Part shown: positions 15,063-55,288 of the stretch, piece by piece
Numbering within the stretch: the stretch's first letter is position 1
Layout of the letters: the number at the start of each line of letters is the position of its first letter
Source: Pachysolen tannophilus NRRL Y-2460
Taxonomy: Eukaryota
Assembly: GCA_001661245.1 (NCBI GenBank)
Contig: KV454013.1
Span: 1,334,502-1,398,501, forward strand
DNA: 64,000 nucleotides
Reading direction: 5' to 3'
Notes under the pieces: generated by a model
Database searches by the model: none
What the model was told of the DNA's origin: nothing
The model's input: the letters and a program-made list of their open reading frames with translations, nothing else
Program-made: the position numbers and the translations under genes

Positions 15063-15521
15063 NNNNNNNNNNNNNNNNNNNNNNNNNNNNNNNNNNNNNN
15101 NNNNNNNNNNNNNNNNNNNNNNNNNNNNNNNNNNNNNNNNNNNNNNNNNNNNNNNNNNNNNNNNNNNNNNNNNNNNNNNNNNNNNNNNNNNNNNNNNNNN
15201 NNNNNNNNNNNNNNNNNNNNNNNNNNNNNNNNNNNNNNNNNNNNNNNNNNNNNNNNNNNNNNNNNNNNNNNNNNNNNNNNNNNNNNNNNNNNNNNNNNNN
15301 NNNNNNNNNNNNNNNNNNNNNNNNNNNNNNNNNNNNNNNNNNNNNNNNNNNNNNNNNNNNNNNNNNNNNNNNNNNNNNNNNNNNNNNNNNNNNNNNNNNN
15401 NNNNNNNNNNNNNNNNNNNNNNNNNNNNNNNNNNNNNNNNNNNNNNNNNNNNNNNNNNNNNNNNNNNNNNNNNNNNNNNNNNNNNNNNNNNNNNNNNNNN
15501 NNNNNNNNNNNNNNNNNNNNN
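15063..15521. other. Assembly gap (N run)
   Basis: Run of N. Confidence 0.99.
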
Positions 15522-15544
15522 NTAATTTTACTTAATTAATATAT

Positions 15545-28556: not shown

Positions 28557-31115
28557 CTATATTCGATCTCCCTTATTTACAAAGAAACTTCTTGTAGTAT
28601 TTACAACTTGCCTGAAATCATTAATGTCATAGGTTACTAGTCTCTTTCGAACCCAACCACTCAATTTGCTTGAAATTCTAGTATTTTCTGAATATCTCTT
28701 ATCTATCAAGTAAATGGTTGCATAATCACCAATATGTCTGATTGATCTACCAATACTTTGATTAACCAGTCGCATACAAATATTTTCATAAAAATGAGTA
28801 CAAGCTTCTAAAGACATTTGCTTATTTTGTGTCTTTGCAAAAACTTGATCATATATATATTTTCTTTTTGAAATAATCTCTCCACTGAATAAATTTGGAA
28901 ATGGAAGTCCAATCATTATTACAGCTCTTGCAAGATTATCAGAAAAATTTATACCTTCAGATAACTTGCCTCCAACAACGGAAAATAGAATTGCTCCTTT
29001 ATTATTCAATATTTCTAAAGAATAATTTTGTAATAAATCATCTAATTCAGTGGAATTTTGCTCTTCTTTGAAAATTTTTTTTAACTTGTTCAATATCGAA
29101 TAAATAGTTGATTTTTGCCATTGTGATATCACTTGAAATAAATATTTATAACTTGGGAAAAAAACAACAACACCTCCTGGTATATTCTTGGCAAGTTCAA
29201 TAAAAGTAAAACCTAGCCCATCAATCATCTTGTTATCGTTTCTTTTATCAAACGTGAATTCGAAAGGCAATCCGTTACAACTCTTACCAACACTGAAAAC
29301 TTTTAAGTTGTCATCAGGTATAATATGATCACAACTAAATTTTAAGATTTTTTGTTTATCAATATAAGGAAATAAATAATGCTCATAATCTTCCATTGGT
29401 TCCATTGTACCACCTGCTAATATAACACATCTTGCGTGTTCCACAATTTCTCTAAAAATTTCACTAGAATCCAATAACATATAATTTATCGATATATCTT
29501 CACCAATTTTATCAAAAAAAAATTTACCTTCTCTTGAAGGATTTGCTAGTGATTTCATGAATGCAGTCACTTTGAACAACAATGGCATTGATCTATGCAT
29601 CGATTTTCTTCCAGTAATCTTTTCCATATAACCTTCAATCTTATATGCAATCTTAGAAACAGAGAGATATTTATCTAATTTATGAATATTTAATATATCA
29701 CCATTATTGTCACTAAAAATATCCAAGATTTGAATTTCTTTACCTGGGGTAACCATTTTTGAATTTCGTTGATTGATGATAAAATTTTGTAAAATATCAA
29801 CCATTTTAATAATCTTAGCCAAATTGACTCTATTACCTCCATTTAACCTTGTTCTAAATTTGTTCATATAAAATTTAAGAGTTTTCTTTGTATCTGATAA
29901 TTCTTGTAATGATATTGAAGTTGAGTTCATGGCTGATATGGTATCTAACAAATTATGAGCTTCATCTATTATTACAATTGAATCTTTAAGTTTCAAGCCC
30001 AATACATCTCTAGCTGATTTTTCCAAGAGTAATTGGTATGGTAGGGCAATAATTTCACTAATATTAACACCACTTCTAACGCTATAATAAGGACAAATTG
30101 TAAGTTTTTCTCCAATCTTGTGTAAATCCTCAATATCATGAACTTCACTGAATGTCATATCTCTAAATCTCTTAACCAAATTTTCACTAATTGGGTCACT
30201 ATGTTTGGGGAAATATTGACAACCTTCAACAACGTCATTTCCTTTTCCTTTTACTTTAGATTTATTTTGTTGTAAATCTAAACAGCCATCATTAATTAAT
30301 GAAACATTTTCAAATTTTGATATCTTGGGATGAACACATAATTGTTTTCTAGAAGCTAAGGGTAAATATTTGATTCTTTCCTGGACACCTTCAAAAGAAG
30401 ATTTAAAATTAGTCAATTTAACTTGATGAGAAAATTGATTTAATTGAGAATGGGTTCTTGAAGAATAAAAAATAGTTGTTGGGCATTCATTTATCAAGTC
30501 TCCAAGAGCATTATCTCTAACAACGTGATCTTCAAGACCTTCAACTTTGATCAATAGATCTCTTATTTCCAGTTGAATTTTAAGATTCTCATCAATTTGT
30601 GAATTTTCTCCATCACTAGTATAATCTTTGGGCACAAACTCATTATCATCATCATCATCTTCATTTTCAACTGAAATTTTTATCTTCTTTATTCTCCTTC
30701 TATTATCAACACCATTATCTTTAATCTCATGAACCACAGTAGCATCCACTTCAGATTTAAACTCATCCAAATGTAATTCATAATCTTTCAACAAATTTTT
30801 CTGTTTTGACAAAATCTTCTCTTTATAAACTTCTTTGATCCATTCAGGTTCATCATCATCTTCCTCTTCTTCTTCTTTTTTACTCTCCAACTTATTAACT
30901 TGGTCCAAATGTAACTGTCTCTTATAATTCCTCAACCATGTCATCGTCGAACATATGATCGACAAAGTCTTACCAGTTCCTGTTGGACTTTCAAACAATC
31001 CTATTTTGTAATTCTTATCAATAACATCATAGATCGCTCCCATTAACTGAACCTGAATATGATAGGGCTCATATGGATGACTAAAGAAGTTGCCATCTTT
31101 ACCACAAGCATCCAT
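28557..31115 (-). CDS. CHL1: XPD-family Fe-S DNA helicase Chl1/DDX11
   Basis: HPYEPYHIQ, FESPTGTGKTLSIIC, SSRTHSQL, LASRKQLC, CPYY, DEAHNL, LAGGTMEP, VVGGKLSEGINFSD, NQSIGRSIRH. Confidence 0.97.
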   Translation of the reverse strand: MDACGKDGNFFSHPYEPYHIQVQLMGAIYDVIDKNYKIGLFESPTGTGKTLSIICSTMTWLRNYKRQLHLDQVNKLESKKEEEEEDDDEPEWIKEVYKEKILSKQKNLLKDYELHLDEFKSEVDATVVHEIKDNGVDNRRRIKKIKISVENEDDDDDNEFVPKDYTSDGENSQIDENLKIQLEIRDLLIKVEGLEDHVVRDNALGDLINECPTTIFYSSRTHSQLNQFSHQVKLTNFKSSFEGVQERIKYLPLASRKQLCVHPKISKFENVSLINDGCLDLQQNKSKVKGKGNDVVEGCQYFPKHSDPISENLVKRFRDMTFSEVHDIEDLHKIGEKLTICPYYSVRSGVNISEIIALPYQLLLEKSARDVLGLKLKDSIVIIDEAHNLLDTISAMNSTSISLQELSDTKKTLKFYMNKFRTRLNGGNRVNLAKIIKMVDILQNFIINQRNSKMVTPGKEIQILDIFSDNNGDILNIHKLDKYLSVSKIAYKIEGYMEKITGRKSMHRSMPLLFKVTAFMKSLANPSREGKFFFDKIGEDISINYMLLDSSEIFREIVEHARCVILAGGTMEPMEDYEHYLFPYIDKQKILKFSCDHIIPDDNLKVFSVGKSCNGLPFEFTFDKRNDNKMIDGLGFTFIELAKNIPGGVVVFFPSYKYLFQVISQWQKSTIYSILNKLKKIFKEEQNSTELDDLLQNYSLEILNNKGAILFSVVGGKLSEGINFSDNLARAVIMIGLPFPNLFSGEIISKRKYIYDQVFAKTQNKQMSLEACTHFYENICMRLVNQSIGRSIRHIGDYATIYLIDKRYSENTRISSKLSGWVRKRLVTYDINDFRQVVNTTRSFFVNKGDRI

Positions 31116-31357
31116 TATATCTCAAAGCACTTCATTCACCATCTGATACTTGACAATGTCTTCCATAAAATCTCAACTAGTTTATTTCAATAAATTGATA
31201 TTGAAAACTATTTTAATTTTTAAAAATACACAAAAATTCAAAAAATTCCAAAATTAAAACAATTTTATCAAAAGTTTCCAATTATTTGTAAGTGATTTTT
31301 CACTATTGTGTTTTGGATAGCAATAGGTCTAATAGGTCTTTTCCATTTCCATTGCAA

Positions 31358-31519
31358 ATGATGCCGTCGGGCTCTTCTAGAGGGGTTGGGACTGGTAATA
31401 GTAAAGGCAAATATAATGGTGAGAATGAGCCTTTTTTGTCTGCTAATATCAGAAGAAGGTTATCTATGAGTGGTGATGATGATGAAGATGATGAAGAAGA
31501 ACAAGAACGAGAGGAACGA

Positions 31520-31550
<31 letters not shown>

Positions 31551-34500
31551 GTATGGTGATTAAAAATGAAAAGAGACTACGAACAGGTGATGGTAAGAAG
31601 AGTCAGAAGTTGGGAACTTTTGGTGGGGTTTTTTTACCAACGGCCTTGAATGTTTTAAGTATATTGATGTTTTTAAGATTTGGTTTTGTTGTTGGACAGA
31701 TGGGGATTTTAGGTTCTCTATTATTGCTTTTTATGTCGTATGCTATTGATTTATTGACCACTTTGTCTATCTCTGCAATTGCCACAAATGGTACAGTCAG
31801 AGGTGGAGGTGCTTATTATATGATAAGTAGAAGTTTAGGTCCTGAGTTTGGAGGATCTATAGGAATTGTGTTTTATATTGGTCAGATTTTAAATTCTGCC
31901 TTGAACGTTGTTGGATTTATTGAACCTTTATTGGTCAATTTTGGAGTTAAAAATGGTGAATTCTTGAAAATATTACCAGATGAAGGATATTGGTGGGTTT
32001 TCTTGTATTCTACAGTGTTATTATTTTTATGTACTATCATCTCTTTAACAGGTTCTGGGTTAGTTTCAAAAGCTGGATCTTTATTTTTTGGAGTTTTAAT
32101 CATTGCTACAATATCAATTCCAATTTCTACTTTATTTGTTGCGCCTTTTGAAATTCCAGAACTTGACTCTTATTATTCAGGACCTTGTATTAAAAATTTA
32201 AAAGAAAATTTGATGCCTCATTTCACAAAGAAAGCTGCTGGTTCACAAATAGATGGGAAAGAAACATTTAATGATTTGTTTGGGATTTTTTTCCCAGCTG
32301 CAGCAGGTATATTTGCTGGAGCTTCAATGAGTGGTGATTTGAAAAAACCATCAAAGGCAATACCTAAGGGAACTTTATATGGTTTACTTCTAACTTTTCT
32401 TTGTTATTTTAGTGTTATTCTTTCTATTGGAATTGCTATTCCAAGAGATTTGTTATATAAAGATGTTCATGTTATTCAATCCATTAATATTTCAAGGAAA
32501 TTGGTTTTACTTGGTGAATTTTCAACAGCTTTATTTTCTGTTATAGTTGGTATAGTAGGTGCCGCTAATGTATTGGAAGCAATAGCAAAAGATGAAATTA
32601 TTCCAGGTTTAAAATGTTTTAATAACAATGATAACACTAGCAGTAAAGCCTCTATATTATTTACTTGGTTATTAACACAATTATGTTTGTTTGCAGATAT
32701 TAATCAGATTGCAACGTTTATAACAATGGCATTTTTAATGACTTTTATCGTTACAAACTTAGCTTGTTTCTTATTAAAAATTGGATCGGCTCCAAATTTT
32801 AGACCAAGCTTTGACTGGTTTAGTTCTGCTACAGCATTTGTTGGATGTATCAGCTGTGCAGTGGCTATGTTTATTGTTGATGGAACTTCAGCTATGCTAG
32901 TAATTGTCTTTCTTCTTCTTTTGTTTTTATTAATCCATTATGTTTGCCCTCCAAAACTGTGGGGGGATGTTTCACAATCATTAATATATCATCAAGTGAG
33001 GAAATATTTGTTAAGATTAAGACAAGACAATGTTAAATATTGGCGTCCACAGATTTTGTTATTGATGGATAATCCTAGAACGGCATGGAATTTAATGAGT
33101 TTTTGTAATCATTTGAAAAAAGGTGGATTATATATATTAGGACATGTTATAGTGACTGAAACTTTTCAAGATAGATTTTCTGAATTCAAGAAACAACAAC
33201 AGGCATGGATGAAATTGAGAGATTTATCCAAGATAAAAGCCTTTGTCCAAATTGGATTAGGTCCTACATTGTCATGGGGGGTTAGAAATGTTTATTTGGG
33301 TAGTGGTCTAGGAGGAATGAAACCAAATATAACAGTCTTGGGATTTTATGATCTTTCTGATTATTATGCGGAAAGAGAGGCTAAAGATTCATCATTTAGT
33401 AACCCTATGAAATCACTTTGTACTGAGAGACAAAATACTCGTTTTAACAATCAGATTGGTGTTGATTTTGAAAGTTTACCTACTGATTCATGTCGTAACG
33501 AAAATAAAGCTACAATTCAAGAATGGGTTCACATTATTGAAGATTTATTACTTTTAGAATCAAATGTTGCTATAGCAAAAGGATTTCCAAGGTTAATTTC
33601 AGTGATTGCGATTGCCGTTGCTGCTGCTGCTGCTGCTGTTGTTGTTGTTGTAATGGTTGTGATTGTCCCTGGGTAGGCGGTAATCTATTATTATGAAAAA
33701 AACTGAAGGTCCAGCTCTGTTTCTGTTGGCTTTTTGTGTTTTGACTGATAAAGAAGATGACAGTTTTTTCTTCAATTCAGGTCTTGCTAAAGGTGATTTA
33801 GCTGGTTTCATTGAATTCTGATAAGACATAGTAGATCCATATCCATATCCATATCCGTTTCCGGATCCGTATCCGTTTCCTCCTGTTCTACTGTTATTTA
33901 AAGATCCATAATTTCTAACCTTATTATTTAAACTCAGCTCAGAATCACTATCGGATACTAAATCTTCTGAATCTGATAAATCTGATGAATCCGATATGTT
34001 TGTTTTTGCAATATCAGATTGCAGTAATTTTGAAGTTCTCATACTCACTGATAATCCTAATTTCTGTAATTTTGAAAAAGTATATCTCCTTTTTTTTATT
34101 TCCTCCATCTTCTCTCAAAGCTTTAAAATTGAAACTATTATTATTTCCAATAGGAACATCCATGGACAAAGATCTTTTAAATTTGTCTTTATTTTTGTTA
34201 TTCGTTTTTGAAAAATTTCTAATTTCCAAAAGATTTTGAAACCATTCATCATCACCTATCAATTTATTTACTCTATTAACAGCATTATGATTTGTCTTAT
34301 CACCTTTAACGATATAATTATAAACCGGATAATCACCTGAACTAAAGCTCAAAACTAAAATTTCCGCCTTGATCCTTAATACTTCCAACAATGAAGAAAC
34401 TCTGTTCTTTTCATCCTTGACATCTTCTTGATATTCCACAAACACAACTACTCGTAATTTATGTGTTCTTTTCCATTCGGGTACGGTATTTAAAATAGCT

Positions 34501-35362
34501 CCCAATTGTAAAATTAAAGTGTATGTATCAAAATTTGTAGTCAAAGCACTTTTTGCACCAGTCTCATCAGCAATTTGTGCACTCATTTGAATTGGATATA
34601 AATCAATATACTCTTTTGAACAATTAGGTACTTCTGGTGAATGTTTAGTTGGTAAATTTTTACAATCTTCAAAATACATCTTCGTTTTTTGCTGCTCCTC
34701 CTAGTGATAATAGCTATAGCATTACTGGGAATGCATCTACTATTTCTCTTAAATCAAGGAAACAACTGAGGCCAAATTTTTCATCTGTTGCTATTCCTCA
34801 ATCGCAGGTCCTTGAGGATGCAAGTGGAGATCAGCCTTCGATAATGTTTATACCAGATTTAGAACGAGACAATAGAAGTAGGGCATCAAGTCTTAGATAT
34901 CAACCAAGTATCAATAATAAAATTGCAAATAATAATACCGAAGAAGATCTTAGGATCAATTCTCCTGGTTTATTACCTTCAATACAAACAAATTCAGACA
35001 TTGAAGGTAATGAGGAAGATGTTGATTACGAGAGAAATGAAGACGAAAGTATAAACGCTGTTGGTGGTGCACGCGGTGCGGGTGCAGATTATGATTATGA
35101 TAATGATGGTAATGACTGTGATGAGCTTTCTTTTAATGAAATATCTGCAAAAGCTCAGCATTTGATATTGAATGATTTAATGTTGAGAATTTCTTCTGGC
35201 AGTGGAGTCATATTTTCTACGTTACCAGCTCCTAGTATTGGGTGTCATAAATCAGAAGAAGATTGCTTGGAATATGTTCAAAATTTGAATTTGTGGTGTA
35301 GTGAATTACCCCCAATTTTGCTTATAAATTCACAATCAATGACAGTTACCACTGCTTTATAG
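31358..35362 (+). CDS. VHC1: Vacuolar cation-chloride cotransporter Vhc1 (SLC12 family), interrupted in this assembly by an inverted internal segment 33596-34658
   Basis: [62 protein letters not shown] on +. Middle part [25 protein letters not shown] on -. C-terminal [33 protein letters not shown] on +. Confidence 0.9.
33596..34658 (-). other. Inverted internal segment of the VHC1 coding sequence
   Basis: Reverse-complementing 33596-34658 gives in-frame junctions FPRL|NLPTKH and QSxK|FYNLQN. Confidence 0.85.
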
Positions 35363-35517
35363 ATTTTAGTTATTATCCTTTCCCCTTATATTTTATTCAA
35401 CAGACATTTATGTATCAAATATATACCATTTTCGTCGTGTTTATTGATTGACAAGAAATCAGTTTTAACAGAACTGAAACATTTAGTTAAAACTAAATAT
35501 TATAGGGTGAGAGTGCA

Positions 35518-35568
35518 GGCGGTAACTCCTCCCCGTTTCCTCCCTTTTTTTTCCAGCAGAGAGCCGCC
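35518..35568. promoter_or_regulatory. URS1-like GC boxes upstream of the 187-aa ORF
   Basis: GGCGGTAA at 35518-35525 and AGCCGCC at 35562-35568 in a GC-rich island. Confidence 0.4.
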
Positions 35569-35711
35569 TTTTTTCTGCCCTTTCCCGCCCCAAAAAAAAA
35601 ATTTTTTTTTCTATCACTACTGTTATCATCTATCTATATTATCATTTTATTCATATACCTACATACTTACATACTTACATACATACATATATATAATTAT
35701 AATATGCCAAA

Positions 35712-36275
35712 ATGTCTACATCAGTGGTAGAAGAGAACTTTTCCAAAATCAAAATATTATCATTTTTAATATATGATGCATATATCAAAGTAGTTAAACT
35801 AGATTATAATCTAGTATCGTATTATATAATTCAGGTTAAATCTGATAACGATAAAAATCTCATTGAGGATTTATCATGGTTACGAGAAAATTTACTACTA
35901 GGATTGAAAAAAGTGAGTAATATGAGAAATGATTTAAATCAAATAACTTCTATGGATAAGATTTCATTATTTTATGAATATTTACAAGATTTATTAGTGA
36001 CGAATCTTTTAAACGATTTTATTGCTATTATAAAAGATTTAAAATCTCAATTGATTGATATAGGTTCTAATGGTGTTTCAAAATTTGAGAAAATCCTCAA
36101 AGTTCATGATTTAATAAAGATTATAAATCGAGATTTTTTAAAAATTGATCAGAAAAATAATGAAAAAGAACCAAGGCAATTACAAGAAAATGGATTTAAA
36201 ATTAGATTGGAAATTGTAAGCTCAAGATTGGATAAATTAGAAAATAGTATTGATGGCTTTAACGTTAATGAGTGA
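35712..36275 (+). CDS. Hypothetical 187-aa helical protein
   Basis: ATG in A-rich context (AAAATGTCT), protein-like composition, coiled-coil-like C-terminus. No family recognised. Confidence 0.7.
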   Translation: MSTSVVEENFSKIKILSFLIYDAYIKVVKLDYNLVSYYIIQVKSDNDKNLIEDLSWLRENLLLGLKKVSNMRNDLNQITSMDKISLFYEYLQDLLVTNLLNDFIAIIKDLKSQLIDIGSNGVSKFEKILKVHDLIKIINRDFLKIDQKNNEKEPRQLQENGFKIRLEIVSSRLDKLENSIDGFNVNE

Positions 36276-36645
36276 AAAGTGAAGGAAGTGAAGAAGTGAA
36301 AAATTCATTATGTCTGGTTTTATGTCACCCTTTGGTGTGACATGACATGATTTGGTTCGTCATGACACTATGAACCGAATTTGGGGGGTTTTGATATTTG
36401 GTAAACGACGACAATATTTAGGAGACACGACCTTTTTTTAGCCTTTTCCCTTTTTCGGATTGTTGAGCAACATTAAACTACTTTTGTTATTTTTTCTGTT
36501 AATTTTTTTTTTTGCTTTTTTTTTCTCTCTTTTTTGCTTAATCTGCGGGAAAAAATTGGAAATGAGCAGAAATATATATAATATTTAAATGTTAATTCAA
36601 TTGATTTTATTTGTTTTCACGAGTATTATACGGAATTAGATAGGA

Positions 36646-37412
36646 ATGAATATTAATCAGCAGTCACTGCAACGGTGGCAGCTGACGCTATCTGCTACTG
36701 ATAGACAAAAGTTTATTGCAATATTGTAAGTTTTTAAAAGTTCAAAAATTGAGGAAAATCATAATGATGTTAAATAGTACCCTTGTTTTAAAAAAGAATT
36801 AAATTGAATCTAATTACTAACTAACTAATTTTTTTTTATTTTTTATTATTAATTTTTTTGTTATTAGAAAACAAGCCTATTTCCAGACACCGAATCCCCC
36901 TGATGATGTTCATCAGATTGCACAGGATTTTGAAAGTTATTCATATCAAAATGCTCGTTCAAAGGAGATGTATGCTAGCTTGTGTAAGCATAAGTTATTA
37001 GAAATCAAAAGTGGACTGGCAGCAGCGGTAGCCGCTGCTGCCGCCAATAACAGCGGTTCAGGGAATGGCGGTAATATCCATAATATGATTCCGCAGCAGC
37101 TTTTGAATGGGGCCCTGGCTGCGGGTGGTTCCGGTGCTACAAGCAATAGCAATAACAACAATAACAACAATAATAATAATAACATTAATAACTCCGGTAT
37201 CAATAATTCCGCTTCTAATATTTCAAACAATATAGCCAATAATAATAGTAACGGCGCTAATGGGCAATTGCCGAATTTGAATCCCGAACAGACAAGAGCC
37301 TTTTTGGCAAGGCAAGCGCAAGTAAGGCAACAAGCTGCTCAGTCTTTGTTACAACAGCATCAACAACAACAACAGCAAACTGGAAACAGTAACAATAATA
37401 ATACTAATAATA

Positions 37413-37443
<31 letters not shown>

Positions 37444-40400
37444 TGGTAATAACAAGGGTAATCAACTGGGTGGTACTGGACCGCAGCATTCGCCTCTGAT
37501 GCCAATGGCTCCGATGAACCCAATGAACTCAACCAAGCCGCTCCTGGCCATAGATCTAAGAAGTACACCAATCCCCGATGCCTTGCTTTCAAAGATTCCT
37601 GGTCTTCCTGCAGGTGTCCACACTTGGGGCCAAATTATGGATTTGGCAACAAAACAAGTTTTCAGCCCCGAGGTGTTGAATACTATTAAAAATGTTCATC
37701 AAATGCATCAACAATTACTTCTTCTAAGACAAGAGCAGACTTTAAAACAAGGGGTAGGGGCCATCAATGCAAATCCAAACAATAAACCAAATAATAATAC
37801 GAATAACTTTACTTTCAATACTAATGCTACTGCGGCAATGATGAACCAACAACGCCTGCTGTTGCTGAAACAACTGCAACAGCTGCTGCAACAGCAGATG
37901 CAACTTCGTCTGCAACAACTGCAACAACTGCAACAACAACTGCTGCTGCTGCTGCTGCTGCAAATTCCAGGAGCAAATAATAGGTTTAACCAAGCACAAC
38001 AACAACAACAACAACAACAACAGGCTTTAAACAGCAATAGTAACAATCAGCAAAGATTGCCATTAACTCAATCAATACCTCAACAGGTTCTCAAAGATGG
38101 TACAACTCAAGCACTACAATTATTACAAAGATTACAGGCTCAAGGTGCTGTACCAAGAGATTTAACTCAAGAACAAAAACAGGCATTTATAAAGAAATTC
38201 ATTATTCATCAAATAGAGCAATTGAAGAAGAATGCTGCTAATAATAACGCAAACAATAACAATAGCAGCAACAATGGCAACAACAATAACAACAATAATA
38301 ACAACAACAATAACAATAATAATAATAGTAATAATACTAATAATAACAATATGCCGCTTCCCTTGTCAGCTAATCAGGCTCAGGTTCAAGCAAGAATGCA
38401 ACAAACAGCAGCTGCCGCTGCATCAAATAATATTACAGCACCACCTCAGCAGCAGCAAATGGGAGGTTATGTTCCGCCTCTTCCACCACATGCAAGATGG
38501 AATGGTAATAATGGTATTGTTCCACAACAAGGTAATAACAATAATCAAAGCAATAATAACAACAACAACGCTAGCCTTCAACAGAAATTGGCACTTCAGG
38601 CTCAAAACTCTCATTTACCTACTATGCAACACCAAAGATTACAACATCAACAACAAGGGCTACCTACAAATGACCAGCATATTAGACCTAACAATTTGAA
38701 CCCTCAATCACTGCAATTTTCTCAGATTGCTCAACAACTGCTGCAGCAACAACAACTGCAACAGCTGCAGCAACAAAACCCTAGAGGCACCATTATTGCT
38801 ACTGAAGAGGATAAGCAAGAGTTGAAAAAATTGGTTGAAGATTCTTCGAAATTTGCCATTAATTTAAGAAATTTAACAAATGAAATGAGCCCTGATGAGA
38901 AAAAATACATTTTATCACAGTTTAAAACTTTGGTATCAATGTTGAGCATGACTGATAATATTATTCCTAATTTTTATTTCATTACAAAGAATAAAGATGG
39001 AACAAGTAAATTATTATCAATGAGGATAATGATCAAAATTATAATCAACGGATTGAAAAATAACGAATTCTATGCCAACCAGCTTCTTTATACAAAGATT
39101 CAAACACAAATTCAAAGATATGTTAATTACATAAAAGAATATCAGAAGACCTATGCCAGCAAGATATCTGGAATCAATACTAATATTCCTCAGGTAAGAA
39201 ATAACTGGCAACAGCAACTGCTGCAACAACTGCAACAACAACTGCAGCTGCTGCAACAGCGTTTGAACCAACAACAATTGTACCAAAATATGCAAGGCGG
39301 TTTACCTCAAAACAAGGCCATGCTCCACCAACAACTGCAACTGCAACTGCTGCAACAACAACAGCAACAACAGCAACACCAAATGATGCCATCGCATGTT
39401 CCACATAATTTACAGCCAACTGTCGACAGTAATAATCCTTTATCTCAGCAACTGCAATTGTTCCAAAATATGCCACTGCAAGATGCTGCGTTATTGTCAA
39501 TGACCATGCCGGGTACTACACCACTGCAACAATTTCAACTGGCACCAACTGGGTTACCTCCGTCAGCTCCACTAACACCACAGTTGATTCAACAACAGGC
39601 TCTGCAAAGATTTGCCCCATCAATGGCTAATAATTCAATGAGATCGTCACCAATTGTTCCAGCACCGATCCTTCCAAATCCAATACAGCAGCAGCAACAG
39701 CTTCACCCACTGCAGCATCAATACCAACAACTGCAGCAGCAGCAACAACAACAACAACTGCAGCCGCAGCAGAAAGTTTCGAACACTACGACGCCAACTG
39801 GAACAAGTGTTGGACTAACATCTAAGAAATTAACGCCTAATAGAAGAAAATCGAAAACTGTACAAAAAGCTAATAAGACGCAGCAGCCACCGAAGGTGGA
39901 AGTTTCTTCTGTTGCTACTAGTAATAATAACAGCAGTGGTTCTTTAACATCGTCGGAGAAGCCAGGGTCCAATGTTTCAAAGATGGCAACGCCTTCATCA
40001 CTTTCGATGTCACCTGCTAATCAACTGTTTTTGAAAGAACAAGCAGAAAAATTAGCTAGAGAAGAAGCATTGAGAAGTGAGGAAGAGGCATCTAGAATAC
40101 AAAGACAACAATTGGCTGCCATTGATCCAACTTTATACTTTTTATCGAGTTTATCGCATGCTTTTGGTTTGAAAGAAGAAGAATCGAAATTGGTTCATAG
40201 TAAAAATTCTCCTACTTTCAATAAGCAAATGTCTCCATCTATGGTAAAAGGTATAACCCCATCTGCAATATTACAGACTCCAACCCCATTCAATGTTAGA
40301 ACACCACTGTCAGGACGCAGATCTTCTCCTGTCACTAACAAATATAATTCTAAGGCCACTAATGAAGCTATCATCGATGAGGAAAACAATTGGAAGTGTA

Positions 40401-40696
40401 CATTAAAACCACTGGCTGTAAGGTCGGCTTTCAAAGAAGTCCCATCGATTGAACGTACTATATTCAACTTGATGATTCCAACTCCACCAGAAGAAAATCT
40501 AACAGATGGTATACTTAAAAATGAAAATGAAAATGAAAATGAAAATAATATCAAGATCCAAATTAACGACAAAAAAAGAAAATTCGAAGGCGACAATGAT
40601 ATGGGTCCTTTGAATAAGGAATCCAAAATTGGATTTTTCAAAGAAAGCGAAGCCATAGATCCAATCTGGGACTTTAACTCGATTTCAGCGCCATGA
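36646..40696 (+). CDS. GAL11: Mediator tail subunit Med15/Gal11; intron 36726-36867
   Basis: Exon 1 MNINQQS..WQ.TLSATDRQKFIAI joined via GTAAGT..TACTAAC (36815)..TAG to a KIX-like segment AQDFESYSYQNARSKEMY. Also IPGLPAGVHTWGQI, long Q/N/QA tracts, TPSAILQTP, IPTPPE. Confidence 0.88.
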
Positions 40697-41235
40697 TTTG
40701 ACTTGAATCATTCACAATATCAAACAATTTGTTTTATTCCACTTTCTTTTTAACTTTTCTATTATTAACTTATTCAACTTGACTTTTATTTTATTTATAT
40801 ATACATACATATTATTCTTTGCTTTTTTTTACTCCCTCCTTTCTTCTCTTTCAAAAGTGTTTCTGTATCGTTTCGGCATCGTTGGTTCTCATCAGTTTTC
40901 TCCAATTTGTTGATGTATTTTTGTATAATAAAAACCGCCCAAATAGAAGTAGTGTACAATATTTCAAATTAGTCCCAATTCGGATTTGTATGTGAAATTT
41001 TTCAGAAAGCACTTTTAAATCAGATAAGGCAAGTGAATTTATAATATATATTTATTGAATTAGCAATCAAGTGTAGAGACGTTTATTGTATCTTGGATAG
41101 AGAGAAGCAAGTCTGGATTTATTTAATAGCTAGATTATAGGTTGTAATCTTTTTTTGTTTCTTTTTTTGTTTTTTTTTGTTAGAATAAAAGGTTTTCATG
41201 TATCATTAATTGGTGGGATTTTATTTAAAGTGAAG

Positions 41236-43956
41236 ATGACTAAGAATGAAAATGTTTCAGATATTGTTGGCAATACAGATGCTAGCAATAATGGTTGCCG
41301 TCAAGGTGGTTCAGGAGATGAAGCTGGTGGGTTTATAGTGGATGATCCTGAATTATCCAAGAGCAATAGAAGGAGGTCAAGAAGATTAAGAGATCAAAGC
41401 AATCATTCTTCAGATTTGAAGGCAAATGAAAATTTAAAAGGTAATAATAATAATGATTTAGAGAAGGCTGATCCTTTAATAACACCTTTCCAGGTATCAA
41501 AACCCAAGAAATTAAATGGTAAGAAAAATGGGAAAAATGGGAAAAAGCAGACAGTAAAATCATCTCGACCATCAGCGCGTGTTTCTTCTTCGTCTAGAAA
41601 ATCTGCTTTGAAGGCAAAGAGAAGTTTAAAAGAGATTTCAGATGGTGATGATGACGATCCAGATTTTGATTCAGATGAATATGTTCCTGAAAATGAAGAA
41701 GAGGAAGAAGGAGAAGAAGAAGAAGAAGTTGAGGGAAATGGTGCAAATGGTGCAAATGAAGACGTGATTTTTATATTCGATAAAGATGGTAATGTTAAAA
41801 GAGAAGGAAGGTCAAATGATGACCCTATCGATCTTTCGCTTGAAGATAATGAAAATGAACTTGATGATGTACCTTTAAGTACTAGAGCTAATGCTACTGA
41901 AGCATCTCGTAAGAGAAGGAAAACAACCTCATCTTCAAGTACTTCATCCAGAGCTAAAAAGGCTAAAGATAAAAAACCAAAGATTTCTTATCATGAAAGA
42001 ATTACGAATAAACTTTTTGATATTCATACAGGGTTGGCCGATGTTTTCCCTAAATTAGCAAGTAATTCCATGATTAAACCGGAACGTGCTATTCAACCTG
42101 AAGGAATGACAATTAAATTATTACCTTTCCAATTAGAAGGTCTTAACTGGTTGATTAAACAAGAAGCTGGTGAATTTGGTGGTGGTGTCTTGGCAGATGA
42201 AATGGGTATGGGTAAGACAATCCAAACAATTGCCTTATTTATGAATGATTGCACGAAAAGACCAAATTTAGTTATTGCTCCAACAGTTGCGTTAATTCAA
42301 TGGAAAAATGAAATTGAACAACATACTGGTGGGAAGTTAAAAGTTTGTGTTTTCCATGGTGCAAATAGACTGAAAAATGCAGAAGGTTTAGAAGAATTTG
42401 ATGTTGTATTGACAAGTTATTCAGTTTTAGAAAGTGTTTACAGAAGACAAAATTATGGGTTTAGAAGAAATAATAAATTAGTCAAATCCAAATCACCTTT
42501 ACATAGTACTCAATTTTATAGAGTTATTTTGGATGAAGCTCATAACATCAAAGATAGGAATAGTGGAACTTCAAGAGCAGCAAATATGTTGAATACCAAG
42601 AAGAGATGGTGTCTTTCTGGTACTCCTTTACAAAACCGTATTGGTGAAATGTACTCATTAATTAGGTATATGAAATTATTCCCATTTTGTGAATATTTCT
42701 GTACAAAATGTAAATGTCGTTCCACTGAATGGAGATTTAGTGATCGTAGTCATTGTGATGGATGTGGCCATCCACCAATGTTACATACCAATTTTTTCAA
42801 TCATTTCATGTTGAAAAATATACAAAAATATGGAATTCAAGGTGATGGTTTAGAAAGTTTTGAAAATATTAGATTATTATTGAAAAACATTATGTTAAGA
42901 AGAACAAAAGTAGAAAGAGCTGATGATTTAGGATTACCACCAAGAATTGTAGAAATTAGAAGTGATTATTTCAATGAAGAAGAAAAAGATTTATATCAAA
43001 GTTTATATTCTGATTCCAAGAGAAAATTCAATGATTATGTTGCAGAAGGTGTTGTATTGAATAATTATGCAAATATTTTCACTTTATTAACTCGTATGAG
43101 GCAATTAGCAGATCATCCAGATTTAGTATTGAGAAGAGCGACTAGTAATAATGGTAATGATTATTTACTGGCAAGTGGTGTAATAGTTTGTCAATTGTGT
43201 GATGATGAAGCTGAAGATGCCATTGAATCCAAATGTCATCATAAATTTTGTAGAATGTGTATTAGTGAGTATGTTGAAAGTTTTGATGGTGATATAGATA
43301 AGGAATTAGAATGTCCTGTTTGTCATATTGGTCTTAGTATTGATTTATCGCTGCCCCTGATTGAAAATGAAGAAGCTATTGGTAAAAAATCCAGTATAAT
43401 CAACAGAATAAGAATGGATGGTGATTGGAGATCTTCAACCAAGATTGAAGCATTGGTGGAAGAATTATATAAATTAAGAAATGATAGGCAAACCATTAAA
43501 TCTATTGTCTTTTCTCAATTTACCAGTATGTTAGATCTTGTTGAGTGGAGATTGAAAAGGGCTGGTTTCCAAACAGTGAAATTACAAGGATCAATGTCTC
43601 CTCAACAAAGAGATAACAGTATTAGATATTTTATGGAAAATCCTCAAGTTGAAGTCTTTTTAGTATCTTTAAAAGCAGGAGGCGTTGCATTAAACTTATG
43701 TGAAGCATCCCAAGTCTTTATATTAGACCCATGGTGGAATCCAAGTGTAGAATGGCAGTCCGGTGATAGAGTCCATAGAATTGGTCAACATAGACCAGTT
43801 AAAATCACCAGGTTCTGCATTGAAGATAGTATCGAGGCAAGAATCATTGAGTTACAAGACAAGAAAGCAAACATGATTAATGCTACAATCAACCACGACG
43901 ACGCTGCCATTAACAGATTAACACCCGGTGACTTGCAATTCCTTTTCATGAACTAG
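41236..43956 (+). CDS. RAD16: Snf2-family ATPase/RING protein Rad16 (global-genome NER)
   Basis: [76 protein letters not shown]. First ATG is at 41236; the track start is a TTG. Confidence 0.97.
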
Positions 43957-44076
43957 ACCTTTAGTTGCCGTTGCCGTTGCTGTTGTTATCGTTGCCGTTA
44001 TCGCAGTCGCCCACACAAAATGGACCATCTGCCATTTATTTTTTCTGGAAATTTGACCCGTGTCAATACTTGCAGT

Positions 44077-44085
44077 TCACGTGAC
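44077..44085. promoter_or_regulatory. Cbf1-type E-box TCACGTGAC upstream of NOT5
   Basis: Exact RTCACGTG match on the - strand. Confidence 0.45.
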
Positions 44086-44391
44086 ACTAAATTGTCTCTT
44101 TGAACAACGACAATTCAAAAAACTTAGAGAAAAGAAACCAAAGACGTATTTTATATATATAGTTTATATATATATATATATCAGTTGAAATAAATTAATG
44201 AAATATTGTATAAGTAGTTAGTGTTAATTTGGATTAGACCATTATTTCTTGAAGTTTATTAAGGAAGAGGGAAAAAAAAAGACTTCAAAATAATATTAAA
44301 TAAAAAAAAATATATATAAAAAAAGAAGAAGGTTTGACTGAGAGAAAAGTAGAGAAAATAGAGGAGTTTTTAAATTTGTGTATATGGAAAA

Positions 44392-46483
44392 ATGGCACAA
44401 AGGAAACTTCAGCAGTAAGTTTTTATGATTTAGAGATTAATAGGTCAATATCATGATGATTTGAAATTGGATTATTAATGTGGTTTTAAAAATATGAGAT
44501 TTGTATGAATACTAACTGAGTTTTTTTTTTTTTTTTTTTTTTTATCTATTTATTTATTTATTTAGAGAGATTGATAAAATTGTTAAGAAGGTGAAAGATG
44601 GTGCTCAAGAATTTGATTTTTATTATGAGAAATTATTGAGTTCAGAAAATCAATCTCAAAAGGAGAAATTGGAAGGGGATTTGAAAAAAGAAATAAAGAA
44701 ATTACAAAGATCAAGAGATCAAATTAAGGTATGGTTAAGTGGTAATGAAGTTAAGGATAAATCACAACTTGTTGAATTAAGAAAGATTATTGAAACTGAT
44801 ATGGAGAAATTTAAAGATGTTGAAAAAGAAATGAAAACTAAGGCTTTTAGTAAGCAAGGTTTAAATATGCAACAGAAACTTGATCCAAGAGAAAAGGAGA
44901 AATTAGAAACGGCAAATTTTGTTCAATCAATGATTGAAGAATTAGAAAGACAATGTGAAGCATTAGAACTGAAAATTGTTTCAGCTCAAGGCTCACTGAA
45001 GAAGAGTCGTTTATCTTCGAAAAAGCAAGAAGAAATAAATTCAATTCAAGAAACTTTAGATAGGCATAATTGGCATCAAGAAAAAATGGAAAATATTTTA
45101 AGATTATTGGAAAATAATGATTTAGAAGTTGATCAAATTCAAGAAATTGAAGAAGATATCAAATATTATGTTGAAAATAATCAAGAAGATGATTTTATTG
45201 AAGATGATGGATTTTATGATCAATTGGGATTGGAAGCAGTGGAAGATTATAATGCTATCCCTGCAATGCCTTCAAATACAGATGTTACTACAGCTTCAGC
45301 AACTTTGGAAGAAAAAGATCTTTCTCAACAACCAAATTCAACCTCTACTCCAATACCTGCAACACCAATAGCTACAACAATGGCGACTACAAGTTCTTTT
45401 AATCAACCACTATCGGCCACATCGACAACGGTTTTAGCTTCTGGAGGATTAAGTAAGAAATCAACACCAGTAGCTACTACACCAGTATCTTCATCGGTCC
45501 CATTATACCAATCCCTGTCCCAATCGCAATACCATACACAGCAGCAGCAGCAGCAGACTCAGCAGACTCAGCAGAATCAGGAGCAAGAACTGCAACAACA
45601 GGTCCAGATACAACCACAACTTACCCAGAAATCCTCACCTTCATCAACGTCAGCTATACATTCAGCTAAACTTTCTACACCTTCTGGAGCAACAACTCCA
45701 AAATTGAAGTACGCATCTGTAGTTGCAAGTAATAGTGCTTCAAATGGATCGCAACAAGTTACTCAACAAACATCAATATCAGCATCACAGCAGACGCCTC
45801 CTCCACCTCCTCCAGGGTTGACCAAAATTAATACAAATGTTTCTGCCGCAGGGACAGATTCAAGAGAAAGTACACAATCACCTCAATTATTGTCTGCCAC
45901 TGTTGACCATACAGCTGCATCATCATCAGCATCAACTACAATCTCTCCTTTACTTCTGGATTTAGCCCCTGCTTTAGAAAATGCAATGAAGAGATTAGAA
46001 ACACCGGCTTCATTTGAAGATATTTCATCCAAATTAGAAACTTCATTATTAACATGTCCAGATTCACTAGATACTGATAAACCTAAAAATTATTATTCAA
46101 CTCAACCTTTTGCAACTTCAATTTTTTATCCACAAGAACCATTATTCCAATTAGTAAACAACACAAAAAATTTATCAAAATATAATGAATCTACTTTATT
46201 TTACATTTTTTATAACCATAAATTACCAAAGACAGAAATTGAATATCATACAACTTATGGTGAATATTTACAATATAAATCTACTTTGGAATTAATTAAA
46301 AGAGGATGGAAATTTAATAGAGAAGAACAAAAATGGTATCATGCAGATGAAGAAATTATTCCTCCTTTACCAGGACAACAAAATCCTGTAAAACAACAAA
46401 TCTGGAGATACTTTGATGAATCAGATTGGATATCAAAAAGGAAAAATAATTTCAATTATGATGAAACTAAAATGTGGGGATAA
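44392..46483 (+). CDS. NOT5: CCR4-NOT subunit Not5 (Not3/5 family); intron 44415-44565
   Basis: Exon 1 MAQRKLQQ joined via GTAAGT..TACTAAC (44510)..TAG to EIDKIVKKVKDG. EKLEGDLKKEIKKLQR, EKEMKTKAFS, NOT box STLFYIFY. Adjacent to LTP1 as in S. cerevisiae. Confidence 0.92.
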
Positions 46484-46726
46484 TTATTTAAATACTTTTC
46501 AAACATTTAACTTAGTTTTACTTTTTTTTTATTTTCTTTTATTTAGTTTATTTTTGTCCTACTAGAAGTTCTTTCCATAAAGATTAAGAAAGGAACTGGG
46601 ATCATGTAAAAATATTTCTTTTTGTTGATTTTAAACTGTTTTCAAGTTCAAATTGAAAAAATTTTGTAATTCATCTATCTATCTATATATCTATATATAT
46701 CTTTATTAAGTAAATTGAAGTTTTAA

Positions 46727-47435
46727 TTAAGATAATTCTTGTTTTAAAAACTCATTACTGAAATGGCAAATCTGATTATAATTTCTTTCAAACCCACTAG
46801 ATCCTCCGTAATAAGGGTCTTCAACTATTTCACCATAACTTGAATCTGTTCTCCATTCCCCAAACATCTTGACAATAGCTTTTGAACCTTGTGGTTTTAT
46901 CCTTAACAAATTCAGTTTATTAGAACTATCCATAGCAATTATATATTCAAACTCATGAAAGTGTTTTGGCTTGATCTGTTGTGCCTTATGACAAACTGGA
47001 ACTCCATGTCTTTTGCAAGTCAGAACAGAACGATGATCAGGATCTTCTCCTGTATGATACGCACCTGTACCAAATGAATCAATACGTTTAAAATAATGAG
47101 ATTTCCCTAAATCTTTAACTATACTAGTGAAAACAGCTCTACAAGTTAATAAAAAAAAAAAGAACAGACATGTTAGTTCATTGGACTCTTTCGTTGTGTC
47201 ATAGAGAAAATGATAAAAATGATTGAAATCATAGAAATGACTTACTCGGCCATAGGACTTCGGCAACTAATAATAATGATAAAAAATGTGTTGATGTTAG
47301 CAGGTTTCTCCGACTTTCACAATTATACAATAATTCATTGATAAAAAGAAAATAAAAACTCTCTTACATATTACCAAGGCAAACAAAGGCAACGGATATC
47401 TTGCCATCAGGCTCTTTAGAGTCTGATTGAGTCAT
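46727..47435 (-). CDS. LTP1: Low-molecular-weight protein tyrosine phosphatase; exons 47368-47435, 47246-47266, 46727-47138
   Basis: Spliced product MTQSD..KISVAFVCLGNI|CRSPMAE|AVF..IDSFGTGAYHTGE..AMD..DPYYGG. Donors GTAAGA and GTAAGT, branch points TGCTAAC and AACTAAC, TAG acceptors. Confidence 0.93.
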
Positions 47436-47646
47436 TCGAAACTTGTATTATACTTATTCAAAAGCTTTTCAGTATATAAAATATATTAAAACTGTATTCT
47501 AAAATTAAGATGAAAAAAAAAAAAGAAAATTTAAGAAAATACCAAAAAACTTTCAAATTGTTGTTATTTAAAATTATATCTAGTTTTAAAAGAGAGAGCA
47601 GAAGATAGCATAAGAGAGCAGAAGGAGTCAGAGGTGTGTGGTGGAT

Positions 47647-50184
47647 TTAAAGACCTGACCAGTGTTTTGTCTCCTTAAGTTGAAAGCTTTCAACCAATTG
47701 GATATTCTCAGTACTTTTACCGATAATTACATTATAAGTACCACTTTCTGAGCACCAATCGTTATAGTATTCGTCAAAGAAAGAAGTTGCGTACTTTAAT
47801 GAAGTTTTGATTTCAATTTTTTTGGTTTCACCTGCTTTTAGTGATACTTTGATAAAATTCTTCAATTCTTTTATAGGTCTAGTAATGGAAGGTTTCTGTT
47901 GTGAGACATATAATTGAGCAACTTCTTTACCAGATCTATCACTGTTATTTTTCAACTCAAATTTAGCTATTAATAAGTCACTTGACTCGTTAATAGATAA
48001 GACCAAGTTATCATAAGTAAAGTTACTATATGAAAGACCATGACCAAATGGGAACAAGACAGGTCTATCTATTTTTTCATAAAACCTATAATCAACATAT
48101 ACGTCTTCACCATATAGGACTTGACCATTATTTGAATTAAAATTGAAATATGTTGGATTATCTTGTAATCTAATTGGGAAAGTGATTGATAATTTCCCAG
48201 AAGGATTGACATCACCATAAAGAACATCTGCAATTGCATTTCCACCTTCATTTCCTGCAAACCACAGTTGAAGTACAGCTGGGATTTTTTCAATCCATGG
48301 CATTTCAACAGGTGTGCCAGATTGATTAACGACAATAGTGTTTTTATTGGCCAGAACAATTGCTTCGATTAATTGATCTTGATAACCAGGTAATTTCATA
48401 TCTTCCCTATCAAGGCTTTCAGTTTCAAATTCAAGATTTGTACCAGAAACAATTATAACTTTATCATTTTTTTTAGCAATTTCAACAGCTTTAGCAATTT
48501 CCAGTAAAGGGTCAAAGACTTTAATTGCACCAATACGAATACCACCACCACCATAATTTCCTGGATCTAAACCTTTGGTTAAAATTGAAGTTTTACCTGA
48601 ACTAAATTCAATTCTTATTTTATAAGTTTTATCCTTTGATAAAACAATTCTACCCTTTTCTTCAATTGAACCTTGATTGAAAAAAGTATTACCAAAAATT
48701 TGTTTTGTCTTATTATCAACAACTAAAGTTTCATCAACAAAGATTAATGCAGTTCCAACTACTGCAACACCAAATTCATATTCACCATCTTCTTCTGGGG
48801 TAAAATAACCTTCAATATCCAGATAAAAAATAAGATCATTTTCTAAAATTTTAGAATTATAATAATCAACCATATGCATATATGATGAATTTAAATTTAA
48901 TTGTTCAACAAAATTTCTATCACCTTGATAATCTCTTGGTTTTAAATAAATTTTCATTGTAAAACCAACTGATCCATCATCTCTTTTTAATTGAGTACCT
49001 AAACCTGGTAACATCTTATGAGCAGCAGCACCTAAAGTATATTCAGGAATAATATCAGCTTTTGATTTAATACCATCATAAGGAGTTGTTGAATAATATG
49101 ATAATAATGATGCAGAACCACCTCCACAATAAGATGCAAATTTTGCATTTGGACCAAAAATTGCAATTTTATCCAGAGGTTTTAAAGGTAATAAATTATT
49201 ATCATTTTTTAATAAGACAATTGATTCTGAAGCTATTTCTCTTAATTTTAAAGAAGTTATTGGAGTATTATTTGAAGAAGTTTCTGGATCATTTTCATTA
49301 ATTCCTGAATTTAAAGAATATTTAATTAATTTTAATACATTTTCAACTCTTTTATTTAAAATTTTTAAATGAATTTCCTTTGAATTAACAGCATGTTGTA
49401 CTGAATCATATTTTCTCATCTTTGGTGGACCTGGCATTTCTAAATCCAAACCAGCATCAATTGATTCTTTTAAAGAATATAAACCATACCAATCGCTCAT
49501 AGTAGCACCTTGCCATTTCCATTCATCTCTTAAAATTTCTTCAATTAAATATTTAGAATTAGAAACATGTTCTCCATTAACTTTATTATAAGATGTCATT
49601 AAAGAGATTGGATTTGAATCTCTAATTGCAATTTGGAAAGGTAATAAATAAACTTCTCTTAAAGCACGTTGAGTAACAATAGAATTAATAGAACTTCTTT
49701 CAGTTTCAATATCATTACAAACAAAATGTTTTAAAGTTGCTGCAATTTTTTTATCTTGAATACCAGAAATAATTGCAGCAGAAGCAAAACCAGATAAAAC
49801 TGGATCTGGTGAATAACTTTCAAAACCTCTACCTCCTAATGGAGATCTTTGAATATTACAAGTTGGACCCAAGATAACATGAACAGCTTTAGCTTTAGCT
49901 TCTTCCCCCATTAATTGACCTGCTTCAAATAATAAATCTTTATTAAAAGTTGCAGCTAATCCAGTACCACAGGGGAAACAACCTGCTGGAACACCATTAA
50001 AAAATTTTGTACCTCTAATTCCATTTGGACCATCAGAAACTCTTATTTTAGGAATACCTAACCTTTCAATCTTAGCCGTATGCCAAAAATCAACACCTGA
50101 AATTAATTTGACTTTTTCTTCAAGAGTTAACTCTTTAATTAAACTTTCAACATCAAAATTTTTTGAATTTGTAATTAACGTCAT
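47647..50184 (-). CDS. Intracellular GH3 beta-glucosidase with PA14 insertion
   Basis: LTLEEKV, SDGPNGIRG, GGRGFES, KHFVCN, MSDW nucleophile motif, GLDLEMPG, PA14-like insert, ESLDR, PSGKLSITFP, FPFGHGLSY, Fn3-like tail. No signal peptide. Confidence 0.96.
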   Translation of the reverse strand: MTLITNSKNFDVESLIKELTLEEKVKLISGVDFWHTAKIERLGIPKIRVSDGPNGIRGTKFFNGVPAGCFPCGTGLAATFNKDLLFEAGQLMGEEAKAKAVHVILGPTCNIQRSPLGGRGFESYSPDPVLSGFASAAIISGIQDKKIAATLKHFVCNDIETERSSINSIVTQRALREVYLLPFQIAIRDSNPISLMTSYNKVNGEHVSNSKYLIEEILRDEWKWQGATMSDWYGLYSLKESIDAGLDLEMPGPPKMRKYDSVQHAVNSKEIHLKILNKRVENVLKLIKYSLNSGINENDPETSSNNTPITSLKLREIASESIVLLKNDNNLLPLKPLDKIAIFGPNAKFASYCGGGSASLLSYYSTTPYDGIKSKADIIPEYTLGAAAHKMLPGLGTQLKRDDGSVGFTMKIYLKPRDYQGDRNFVEQLNLNSSYMHMVDYYNSKILENDLIFYLDIEGYFTPEEDGEYEFGVAVVGTALIFVDETLVVDNKTKQIFGNTFFNQGSIEEKGRIVLSKDKTYKIRIEFSSGKTSILTKGLDPGNYGGGGIRIGAIKVFDPLLEIAKAVEIAKKNDKVIIVSGTNLEFETESLDREDMKLPGYQDQLIEAIVLANKNTIVVNQSGTPVEMPWIEKIPAVLQLWFAGNEGGNAIADVLYGDVNPSGKLSITFPIRLQDNPTYFNFNSNNGQVLYGEDVYVDYRFYEKIDRPVLFPFGHGLSYSNFTYDNLVLSINESSDLLIAKFELKNNSDRSGKEVAQLYVSQQKPSITRPIKELKNFIKVSLKAGETKKIEIKTSLKYATSFFDEYYNDWCSESGTYNVIIGKSTENIQLVESFQLKETKHWSGL

Positions 50185-52217: not shown

Positions 52218-52590
52218 NNNNNNNNNNNNNNNNNNNNNNNNNNNNNNNNNNNNNNNNNNNNNNNNNNNNNNNNNNNNNNNNNNNNNNNNNNNNNNNNNNN
52301 NNNNNNNNNNNNNNNNNNNNNNNNNNNNNNNNNNNNNNNNNNNNNNNNNNNNNNNNNNNNNNNNNNNNNNNNNNNNNNNNNNNNNNNNNNNNNNNNNNNN
52401 NNNNNNNNNNNNNNNNNNNNNNNNNNNNNNNNNNNNNNNNNNNNNNNNNNNNNNNNNNNNNNNNNNNNNNNNNNNNNNNNNNNNNNNNNNNNNNNNNNNN
52501 NNNNNNNNNNNNNNNNNNNNNNNNNNNNNNNNNNNNNNNNNNNNNNNNNNNNNNNNNNNNNNNNNNNNNNNNNNNNNNNNNNNNNNNNNN
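52218..52590. other. Assembly gap (N run)
   Basis: Run of N. Confidence 0.99.
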
Positions 52591-53686: not shown

Positions 53687-55288
53687 ATGTTGAGAGTATC
53701 TACTTTTACTGGTGCTAAAGTTACTGGTACAACAACTATTAGAACTACAATTGGTTCTCAACAATTAATTACAAAATCTTTATTACTGAGATTTTATTCG
53801 TCTCAAATTCCTTTAAAAGTTCCAGTTACTTTACCAAATGGTATTAAATATGAACAACCAACAGGTTTATTTATTAATAATGAATTTGTTGCTTCGAAAC
53901 AAGGTAAAACATTTGAAGTTTTAAATCCTTCAACTGAAGATGTTATTTGTGATGTTTATGAAAGTAGAGAAGAAGATGTTGATCTTGCTGTGGATGCTGC
54001 TTCAAAAGCTTTTAATTCAGAATGGTCTTCTCAAGATCCTGCAATTCGTGGTGAATATTTATTAAAATTGGCTGATTTAATTGAAGAACATAGTGAAGTA
54101 TTGGCTGGTATTGAAGCTTTAGATAATGGTAAAGCTTTAATTTCTCTGAGAGGTGATGTAGCTTTAGTTGCTAAATATTTAAGATCTTGTGGAGGTTGGG
54201 CCGATAAAATTTTTGGTTCATTAATTGAAACTGGTGATTCTCATTTTAATTATGCAAGAAGAGAACCTCTTGGAGTTTGTGGTCAAATTATTCCATGGAA
54301 TTTCCCATTATTAATGTGGTCTTGGAAAGTTGGTCCTGCATTAGCTACAGGTAATACTGTTGTTTTAAAATCTGCTGAAAGTACACCTCTTTCTGCTTTA
54401 TATGCTTCTCAATTAGTTAAAGAAGCTGGTTTCCCAGCTGGTGTTGTTAATACTTTATCTGGTTTTGGTAAAATTACTGGTAATGCTATTGCTGCTCATC
54501 CAAAAATTAAAAAAGTTGCATTTACAGGTTCAACAGCAACTGGTAAACATATCATGAAAACTGCTGCAGAATCAAATTTGAAAAAAGTAACTTTAGAATT
54601 GGGTGGTAAATCTCCAAATATTGTTTTTGAAGATGCTGATATTAATAAAGCTGTTGCAAATATTATCTTGGGTATTTATTATAATTCTGGTGAAGTTTGT
54701 TGTGCAGGTTCAAGAGTTTATGTTCAAGAAAGTATTTATGATGAAGTTGCAAAAGCTTTTAAAGCTGCTGCAGAACTGGTTAAAGTTGGTGATCCTTTTG
54801 AAAATGGAGTTTTCCAAGGTCCACAAACTTCTCAAAATCAATTAAATAAAATTTTAGATTATATTAATATTGGTACTCAAGAAGGTGCTACTTTAATTAG
54901 TGGTGGTAAAAGAAAAGGTAATAAAGGTTATTTTGTAGAACCAACAATCTTTGGTGATGTTTCTGAAGATATGAGAATTGTTAAAGAAGAAATTTTTGGT
55001 CCAGTTGTTACAATGTCAAAATTTAAAGATGTTGATGAAGTTATTAAATTAGGAAATGATACTGAATATGGTTTAGCTGCTGGTATACATACTACTAACT
55101 TGAATACAGCCATTAAAGTTGCTCATTCCCTTAAAGCAGGTACTGTTTGGATTAATACTTATAACGATTTCCATCAAATGGTTCCTTTCGGAGGTTTCGG
55201 CCAATCAGGTATTGGTAGAGAAATGGGTAAAGAAGCTTTAGATAATTATACTCAAGTTAAAGCAGTACGTATTGCACGTACCAACTAA
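53687..55288 (+). CDS. Mitochondrial aldehyde dehydrogenase (Ald4/Ald5-like)
   Basis: Arg/Thr/Ser-rich presequence, [54 protein letters not shown]. Strongly biased codon usage. Confidence 0.96.

Follow-up and report, generated by a model that had tools for sequence, protein, structure and literature searches.

Our analysis indicates, with a probability of roughly 0.98, that the 64-kb stretch of DNA under study (hereafter the window) derives from the nuclear genome of Pachysolen tannophilus, in which CUG is translated as alanine (NCBI table 26), by means of a single-copy tRNA that combines the anticodon CAG with an alanine-type body. The proposal of the initial annotation that CTG reads as Ala is thus borne out by the alignment columns, in which alanine scores best, as well as by a tRNA-CAG with G3:U70 found in the genome. 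The assignment is correct and already known, and the suspicion of the annotation that it was probably not new was well founded, given that both the code and its tRNA, along with proteomic proof, have been in print since 2016. P. tannophilus, a member of the order Alaninales, is the budding yeast in which CUG-Ala was first described (Muhlhausen et al., 2016; PMC4937558), and in the part of that report consulted, 97.2% of the 907 CUG positions with full support were found by mass spectrometry to carry Ala. The order itself, which takes its name from this code and comprises Pachysolen, Nakazawaea and Peterozyma, is diagnosed by CUG=Ala according to the sections consulted of two further publications (PMC5951914, PMC11182611).

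The window has a GC content of 30%, and its ORFs are yeast-type, long and mostly devoid of introns. Runs of N, totaling 1,458 bases, are located at positions 15040-15522, 22466-23088 and 52218-52590. CTG accounts for 128 of the 13,987 codons counted in 24 ORFs of the window, and one ORF, encoding a luciferase-like monooxygenase (PF00296; 7777-9279), spans 500 codons with zero CTG. Four CTG codons had been cited as occupying positions where homologs conserve alanine, and all four were found to be correctly located and in frame. In a Chl1/DDX11-type helicase ORF (28557-31115), the codon at 28767-28769 on the minus strand specifies residue 783 in the context ICMR[CTG]VNQSIGR; in a GH3 beta-glucosidase ORF (47647-50184), that at 48265-48267, also on the minus strand, specifies residue 640 in VLQ[CTG]WFAG; and in the Rad16 ORF (41236-43956), that at 43357-43359 on the plus strand specifies residue 708 in P[CTG]IENE. 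These three are read as Ala. The fourth, at 44969-44971 on the plus strand, specifies residue 57 of a Not3/Not5-family ORF (44801-46483) and lies in ALE[CTG]KIV, a context which is un-Leu-like and in which Ala and Ser both fit locally. Regarding the same ORF, the translation from its first ATG enters the Pfam Not3 model at position 86 of 231, while the open frame extends back to 44516, and therefore the real start is probably situated in an upstream exon (44516-44801).

Residues at CTG positions were compared in homolog alignments of four proteins, retrieved using the Leu translations as queries, namely GH3 (118 sequences, once the record of the window itself and a paralog from the same species had been removed), Rad16 (119), aldehyde dehydrogenase (119) and Chl1 (150), with the CTG positions set to X. 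The alignments include 14 such positions, and 12 were scored after exclusion of residue 34 of the aldehyde dehydrogenase and residue 182 of Chl1, which fall in a gap in most homologs. Alanine was the commonest residue in seven columns, serine in one and leucine in none, while Asp, Glu, Glu and Gln prevailed in the other four. The summed log-odds were +12.4 for Ala, -6.5 for Ser and -29.9 for Leu, values that rank the readings and do not represent probabilities, since the homologs are mutually related; the summed residue fraction was 4.54 for Ala vs. 0.18 for Leu. An identical test on all codons returned the standard meaning for 58 of the 59 with scorable columns (2 sense codons were without any), CTG being the sole exception, and its assignment to Ala can thus not be attributed to chance. 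The remaining leucine codons, CTA, CTT, CTC, TTA and TTG, all decode as Leu.

At the individual sites, conservation of alanine was evident for Chl1 residue 783 (Ala in 118 of 150 sequences, Ser in 18), GH3 residue 640 (Ala in 109 of 118, Leu in one, Ser outside the six commonest residues) and Rad16 residue 708 (99 Ala, 19 Ser and one Thr among 119). The claim did not extend to the Not5 site, where the only three PDB matches carry Ser in two cases (CNOT3) and Ala in one (Not5), and where the Pfam Not3 model scores Ala and Ser almost alike (155.2 and 154.9 bits, compared to 153.3 for Leu). In the PA14 domain of GH3, the column of residue 455 (48820-48822, minus strand) contains Ala in 52, Ile in 25 and Val in 16 of the 118 homologs. 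The remark that the Vhc1 and aldehyde dehydrogenase sites would also accommodate Ser agrees with our data. In the aldehyde dehydrogenase, residue 154 (54146-54148, plus strand) falls in an Ala/Ser column (Ala 65, Ser 54 and Leu 0 of 119) and residue 364 (54776-54778, plus strand) in a variable small/polar one (Ala 31, Ser 25, Asn 20 and Thr 14 of 119). The Vhc1/SLC12 codon at 32957-32959 (plus strand), in the context PPK[CTG]WG, is uninformative for Ala, Ser or Leu; the AA_permease model scores Ser at 158.7, Leu at 158.3 and Ala at 157.8 bits, and the three KCC alignments listed in the PDB search exhibit Glu. For this site and that of Not5, the relatives in the PDB were too scarce or too remote to settle the residue.

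Profile comparisons were also performed, in which Pfam scores of 14 proteins from the window, translated by table 26 and by table 12, were set against those of the Leu translation. Counting was confined to the 14 families whose matched stretch contains CTG, with overlapping families on one codon excluded. Alanine outscored leucine in 13 of the 14 (sum +25.5 bits) and serine in nine, serine being favored in five, for a net difference of 5.7 bits. Such score differences rule out Leu and distinguish Ala from Ser only weakly. An example is the Chl1 site, with 164.6, 163.7 and 161.9 bits in Helicase_C_2 for Ala, Ser and Leu, respectively. Among public records, P0121 (the best-scoring Rad16 match, labeled P. 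tannophilus) differs from the window, over the aligned length, only at four CTG codons, where it has Ala, while P0001 (GH3) and P0241 (aldehyde dehydrogenase) have Ala at 5/5 and 3/3 CTG codons. The resulting 12/12 is not independent evidence, since these records follow the published code, which the annotation already uses.

The window contains no tRNA gene. A tRNA-CAG with the G3:U70 pair was sought in the genome and is present as a single copy outside the window (G000:C6:217831-217902, minus strand, corresponding to L060:1466-1537). The gene is 72 nt long, begins with GGGC and, as read by eye, has G3:U70, discriminator A73 and G37 on the 3' side of the anticodon, and lacks a long variable arm. 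It is identical to tRNA-Ala(AGC) in 54 of 75 columns and to tRNA-Ala(UGC) in 51 of 75; the corresponding counts for Leu(UAA) and Ser(AGA) are 47 and 45 of 85 columns, and Ser(GCU) reaches 44 of 83. Its slightly greater similarity to the AGC gene may be set beside the UGC ancestor proposed in the published account (PMC4937558, consulted in part). The label "Leu" given to the gene by ARAGORN reflects the anticodon only. The adjoining ORF (L061:7684-8973, minus strand) contains VLPHPPLS, and the legend to Supplementary Fig. 5d in PMC5951914 (a source consulted in part) gives "vlphppls" as the marker gene beside tRNA-CAG in CUG-Ala yeasts. Judged by this neighbor, the locus is syntenic with the tA-CAG locus of the CUG-Ala clade.

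Retrieval of the gene depended on the method employed. It was detected by a genome pattern search allowing 2 mismatches and was overlooked both by the genome Rfam tRNA search (63 matches scored among 1003 candidates) and by a genome DNA search with tRNA-Ala(UGC), whose 6 matches are all GCN-reading; a first pattern search of the genome for tRNA-CAG yielded 6 matches, none of them a tRNA. Inspection by eye revealed an apparent A-C mismatch in the T stem, and the variable loop seems to be shorter by one base than that of the other tRNA-Ala genes; these features may have caused Rfam to overlook it. The minimum-energy fold recovers three stems without the T arm (z -0.59, an uninformative value). 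A one-mismatch genome pattern for a Leu- or Ser-type body with CAG returned 26 matches, of which 7 are tRNAs and none has CAG. Two further observations emerged from the tRNA survey. An intron-containing serine-type tRNA (L047; G000:C2:296344-296438), for which ARAGORN gave the anticodon "cgaa" and no amino acid, probably represents tRNA-Ser(CGA), its intron boundary having been misplaced. The contig G000:C10 (L001, L006-L011, L018 and L027), which is AT-rich and has its tRNA genes in clusters, one of them with the anticodon UCA, has the appearance of the mitochondrial genome.

The decoder would accordingly be an alanine-tRNA body bearing the anticodon CAG, encoded outside the window. Alanyl-tRNA synthetase is established to recognize G3:U70 and to ignore the anticodon, hence this tRNA would be expected to carry Ala, and the missing long variable arm would keep LeuRS and SerRS off it; both steps follow established knowledge and the published account (PMC4937558, consulted in part). 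The same source suggests that tRNA-Leu(UAG) is presumably barred from CUG by modification of U34.

Translation of CUG as serine, in the manner of the CUG-Ser1 and CUG-Ser2 yeasts (table 12), appears highly improbable. Serine does surpass leucine by +19.8 bits in the Pfam sums and alanine in five of the 14 families, and it is frequent at aldehyde dehydrogenase residue 154 (54/119), at Rad16 residue 379 (40/119) and at the Not5 site. However, it is rare at the three best-conserved alanine columns, namely GH3 640, Rad16 708 (19/119) and Chl1 783 (18/150), its column log-odds are negative (-6.5), the sole tRNA-CAG found is built on an Ala body and lacks the variable arm of serine tRNAs, and the published proteomics report Ala (PMC4937558, in the part consulted). 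The standard code, under which CUG would be Leu and the cited sites chance substitutions, is less credible still. In its favor may be mentioned the 17 of 119 homologs with Leu at Rad16 residue 379, which may perhaps be proteins of CUG-Ser yeasts translated by the standard code, and the AA_permease model, in which Leu stands 0.5 bit above Ala. Against it, leucine tops none of the 12 columns, its summed fraction is a small part of that of alanine (0.18 vs. 4.54) and the five other leucine codons decode as Leu.

Somewhat less remote, yet still very unlikely, is that CUG is mainly Ala and measurably ambiguous, either through a second, undetected tRNA-CAG or through wobble by the intron-containing tRNA-Leu(UAG). 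The gene for the latter is present in the genome, the U34 modification thought to stop it is only presumed in the consulted part of PMC4937558, and the tRNA scan covered 63 of 1003 Rfam candidates. On the other hand, no second tRNA-CAG was found in three genome pattern searches or among the 50 Rfam matches read of the 63 in this non-exhaustive scan, and the published proteomics place Ala at 97.2%, with other residues occurring at a rate similar to that at AUG (PMC4937558, in the part consulted).

A practical consequence is that ORFs of P. tannophilus need table 26 throughout, because 183 of the 202 ORFs sampled hold CTG. Under this table Gln-rich regulators change character, with QL repeats becoming QA repeats. 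The code itself adds nothing new, and the possible new value of the present analysis concerns only the concentration of CTG in Gln-rich tracts, defined here by the presence of four or more Gln codons among the 10 neighbors. In the window, half of the CTG codons belong to two ORFs, i.e., that of Med15/Gal11 (PF05397; 36968-40696, plus strand) with 47 of the 128, and a C2H2 zinc-finger ORF (PF21816; 12896-14986, minus strand) with 17, which we take to be Rim101/PacC-like. In both, many of the codons lie within Gln-rich tracts, which in Med15 become Gln-Ala repeats under CUG=Ala. The possibility that the Med15 runs are inverted CAG repeats produced by misassembly appears less likely, because CTG is interspersed with in-frame CAA and CAG.

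Overall, 40 of the 315 codons in Gln-rich context in the window are CTG, vs. 88 of 13,422 outside. An independent genome sample of sixty 10-kb segments (L064-L123; 202 ORFs and 124,837 codons) gave 62 of 1,430 vs. 730 of 123,407, a 7.3-fold enrichment distributed over 19 ORFs. Expressed as a share of alanine codons, CTG represents 62 of 137 in Gln-rich contexts vs. 730 of 6118 elsewhere. The corresponding enrichment was none for CTA (0.97) and 1.0 to 1.4-fold for the GCN codons; among the other single-step neighbors of CAG it was 5.75 for CGG, 3.7 for CAC and 2.75 for CCG. Slippage within tracts makes the codons non-independent, which limits how these enrichments can be read. As a control from other yeasts, 17 fungal metagenome loci (L150-L166) out of 34 were considered, a very small sample that is partly redundant, has few Gln-rich codons and comes from organisms whose codes were not determined; CTG was found in 2 of 155 Gln-context codons vs. 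43 of 4119 elsewhere in L153, in 0 of 101 in L162 and in 0 of 39 in L155. This outcome fits the lead from P. tannophilus and is too small to count.

With CUG=Ala, a single base change turns the Gln codon CAG into one for alanine, a route that is absent under the standard code. It is conceivable, albeit rather doubtful, that the code change reshaped low-complexity regions, with Gln-Ala repeats such as those of Med15/Gal11 being built largely from reassigned CTG. If this were true and specific to CUG-Ala yeasts, codon reassignment would have opened a mutational route that proteins then used. Our literature searches retrieved no report of a link between CTG and Gln tracts; none of the papers listed in one of them contains "polyQ", and the listed papers on this code do not address the matter in the parts considered.

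The VHC1/SLC12 gene of the window (31358-35362) appears broken, its middle lying on the minus strand and its frame being shifted. In all four sequencing runs considered, which represent two studies and at most three samples, one of them perhaps the source of the assembly, a single contig follows the window over 32800-33594 and then switches strand, proceeding from 34659 to 33667. The contigs also carry an extra T at 34089 in 4/4 runs (two T in three runs and one in the other) and an extra A at 33695 in 3/4. The inverted segment (33595-34658) lies beside a short (GCT/GTT)n repeat. The break is most likely an assembly inversion of 33595-34658 accompanied by homopolymer errors. With 33594 connected to 34659 of the opposite strand in the contigs of 4/4 runs, a pseudogene or other real lesion is improbable.

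When compared to known systems, the window shares both the codon and the amino acid with the published P. tannophilus code (table 26; PMC4937558, consulted in part). The published tRNA-CAG, which was compared by its text description and not letter by letter, shares G1GGC4, G3:U70, A73 and G37 with the gene found here and likewise lacks an extended variable loop, and within that comparison no difference from the published P. tannophilus code was found. With the CUG-Ala clade (Alaninales) as a whole, the location of the tRNA adjoining the "vlphppls" gene is common to the clade and this genome (PMC5951914, consulted in part). None of the homologs retrieved was identified as a Nakazawaea or Peterozyma sequence. 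The CUG-Ser1 (Serinales) and CUG-Ser2 (Ascoideales) yeasts are alike in that CUG was reassigned via a tRNA with its anticodon mutated to CAG (same source). They differ in that their decoder belongs to the serine tRNAs and carries a long variable arm, whereas here a 72-nt alanine-type tRNA is present and the alignment columns favor Ala.
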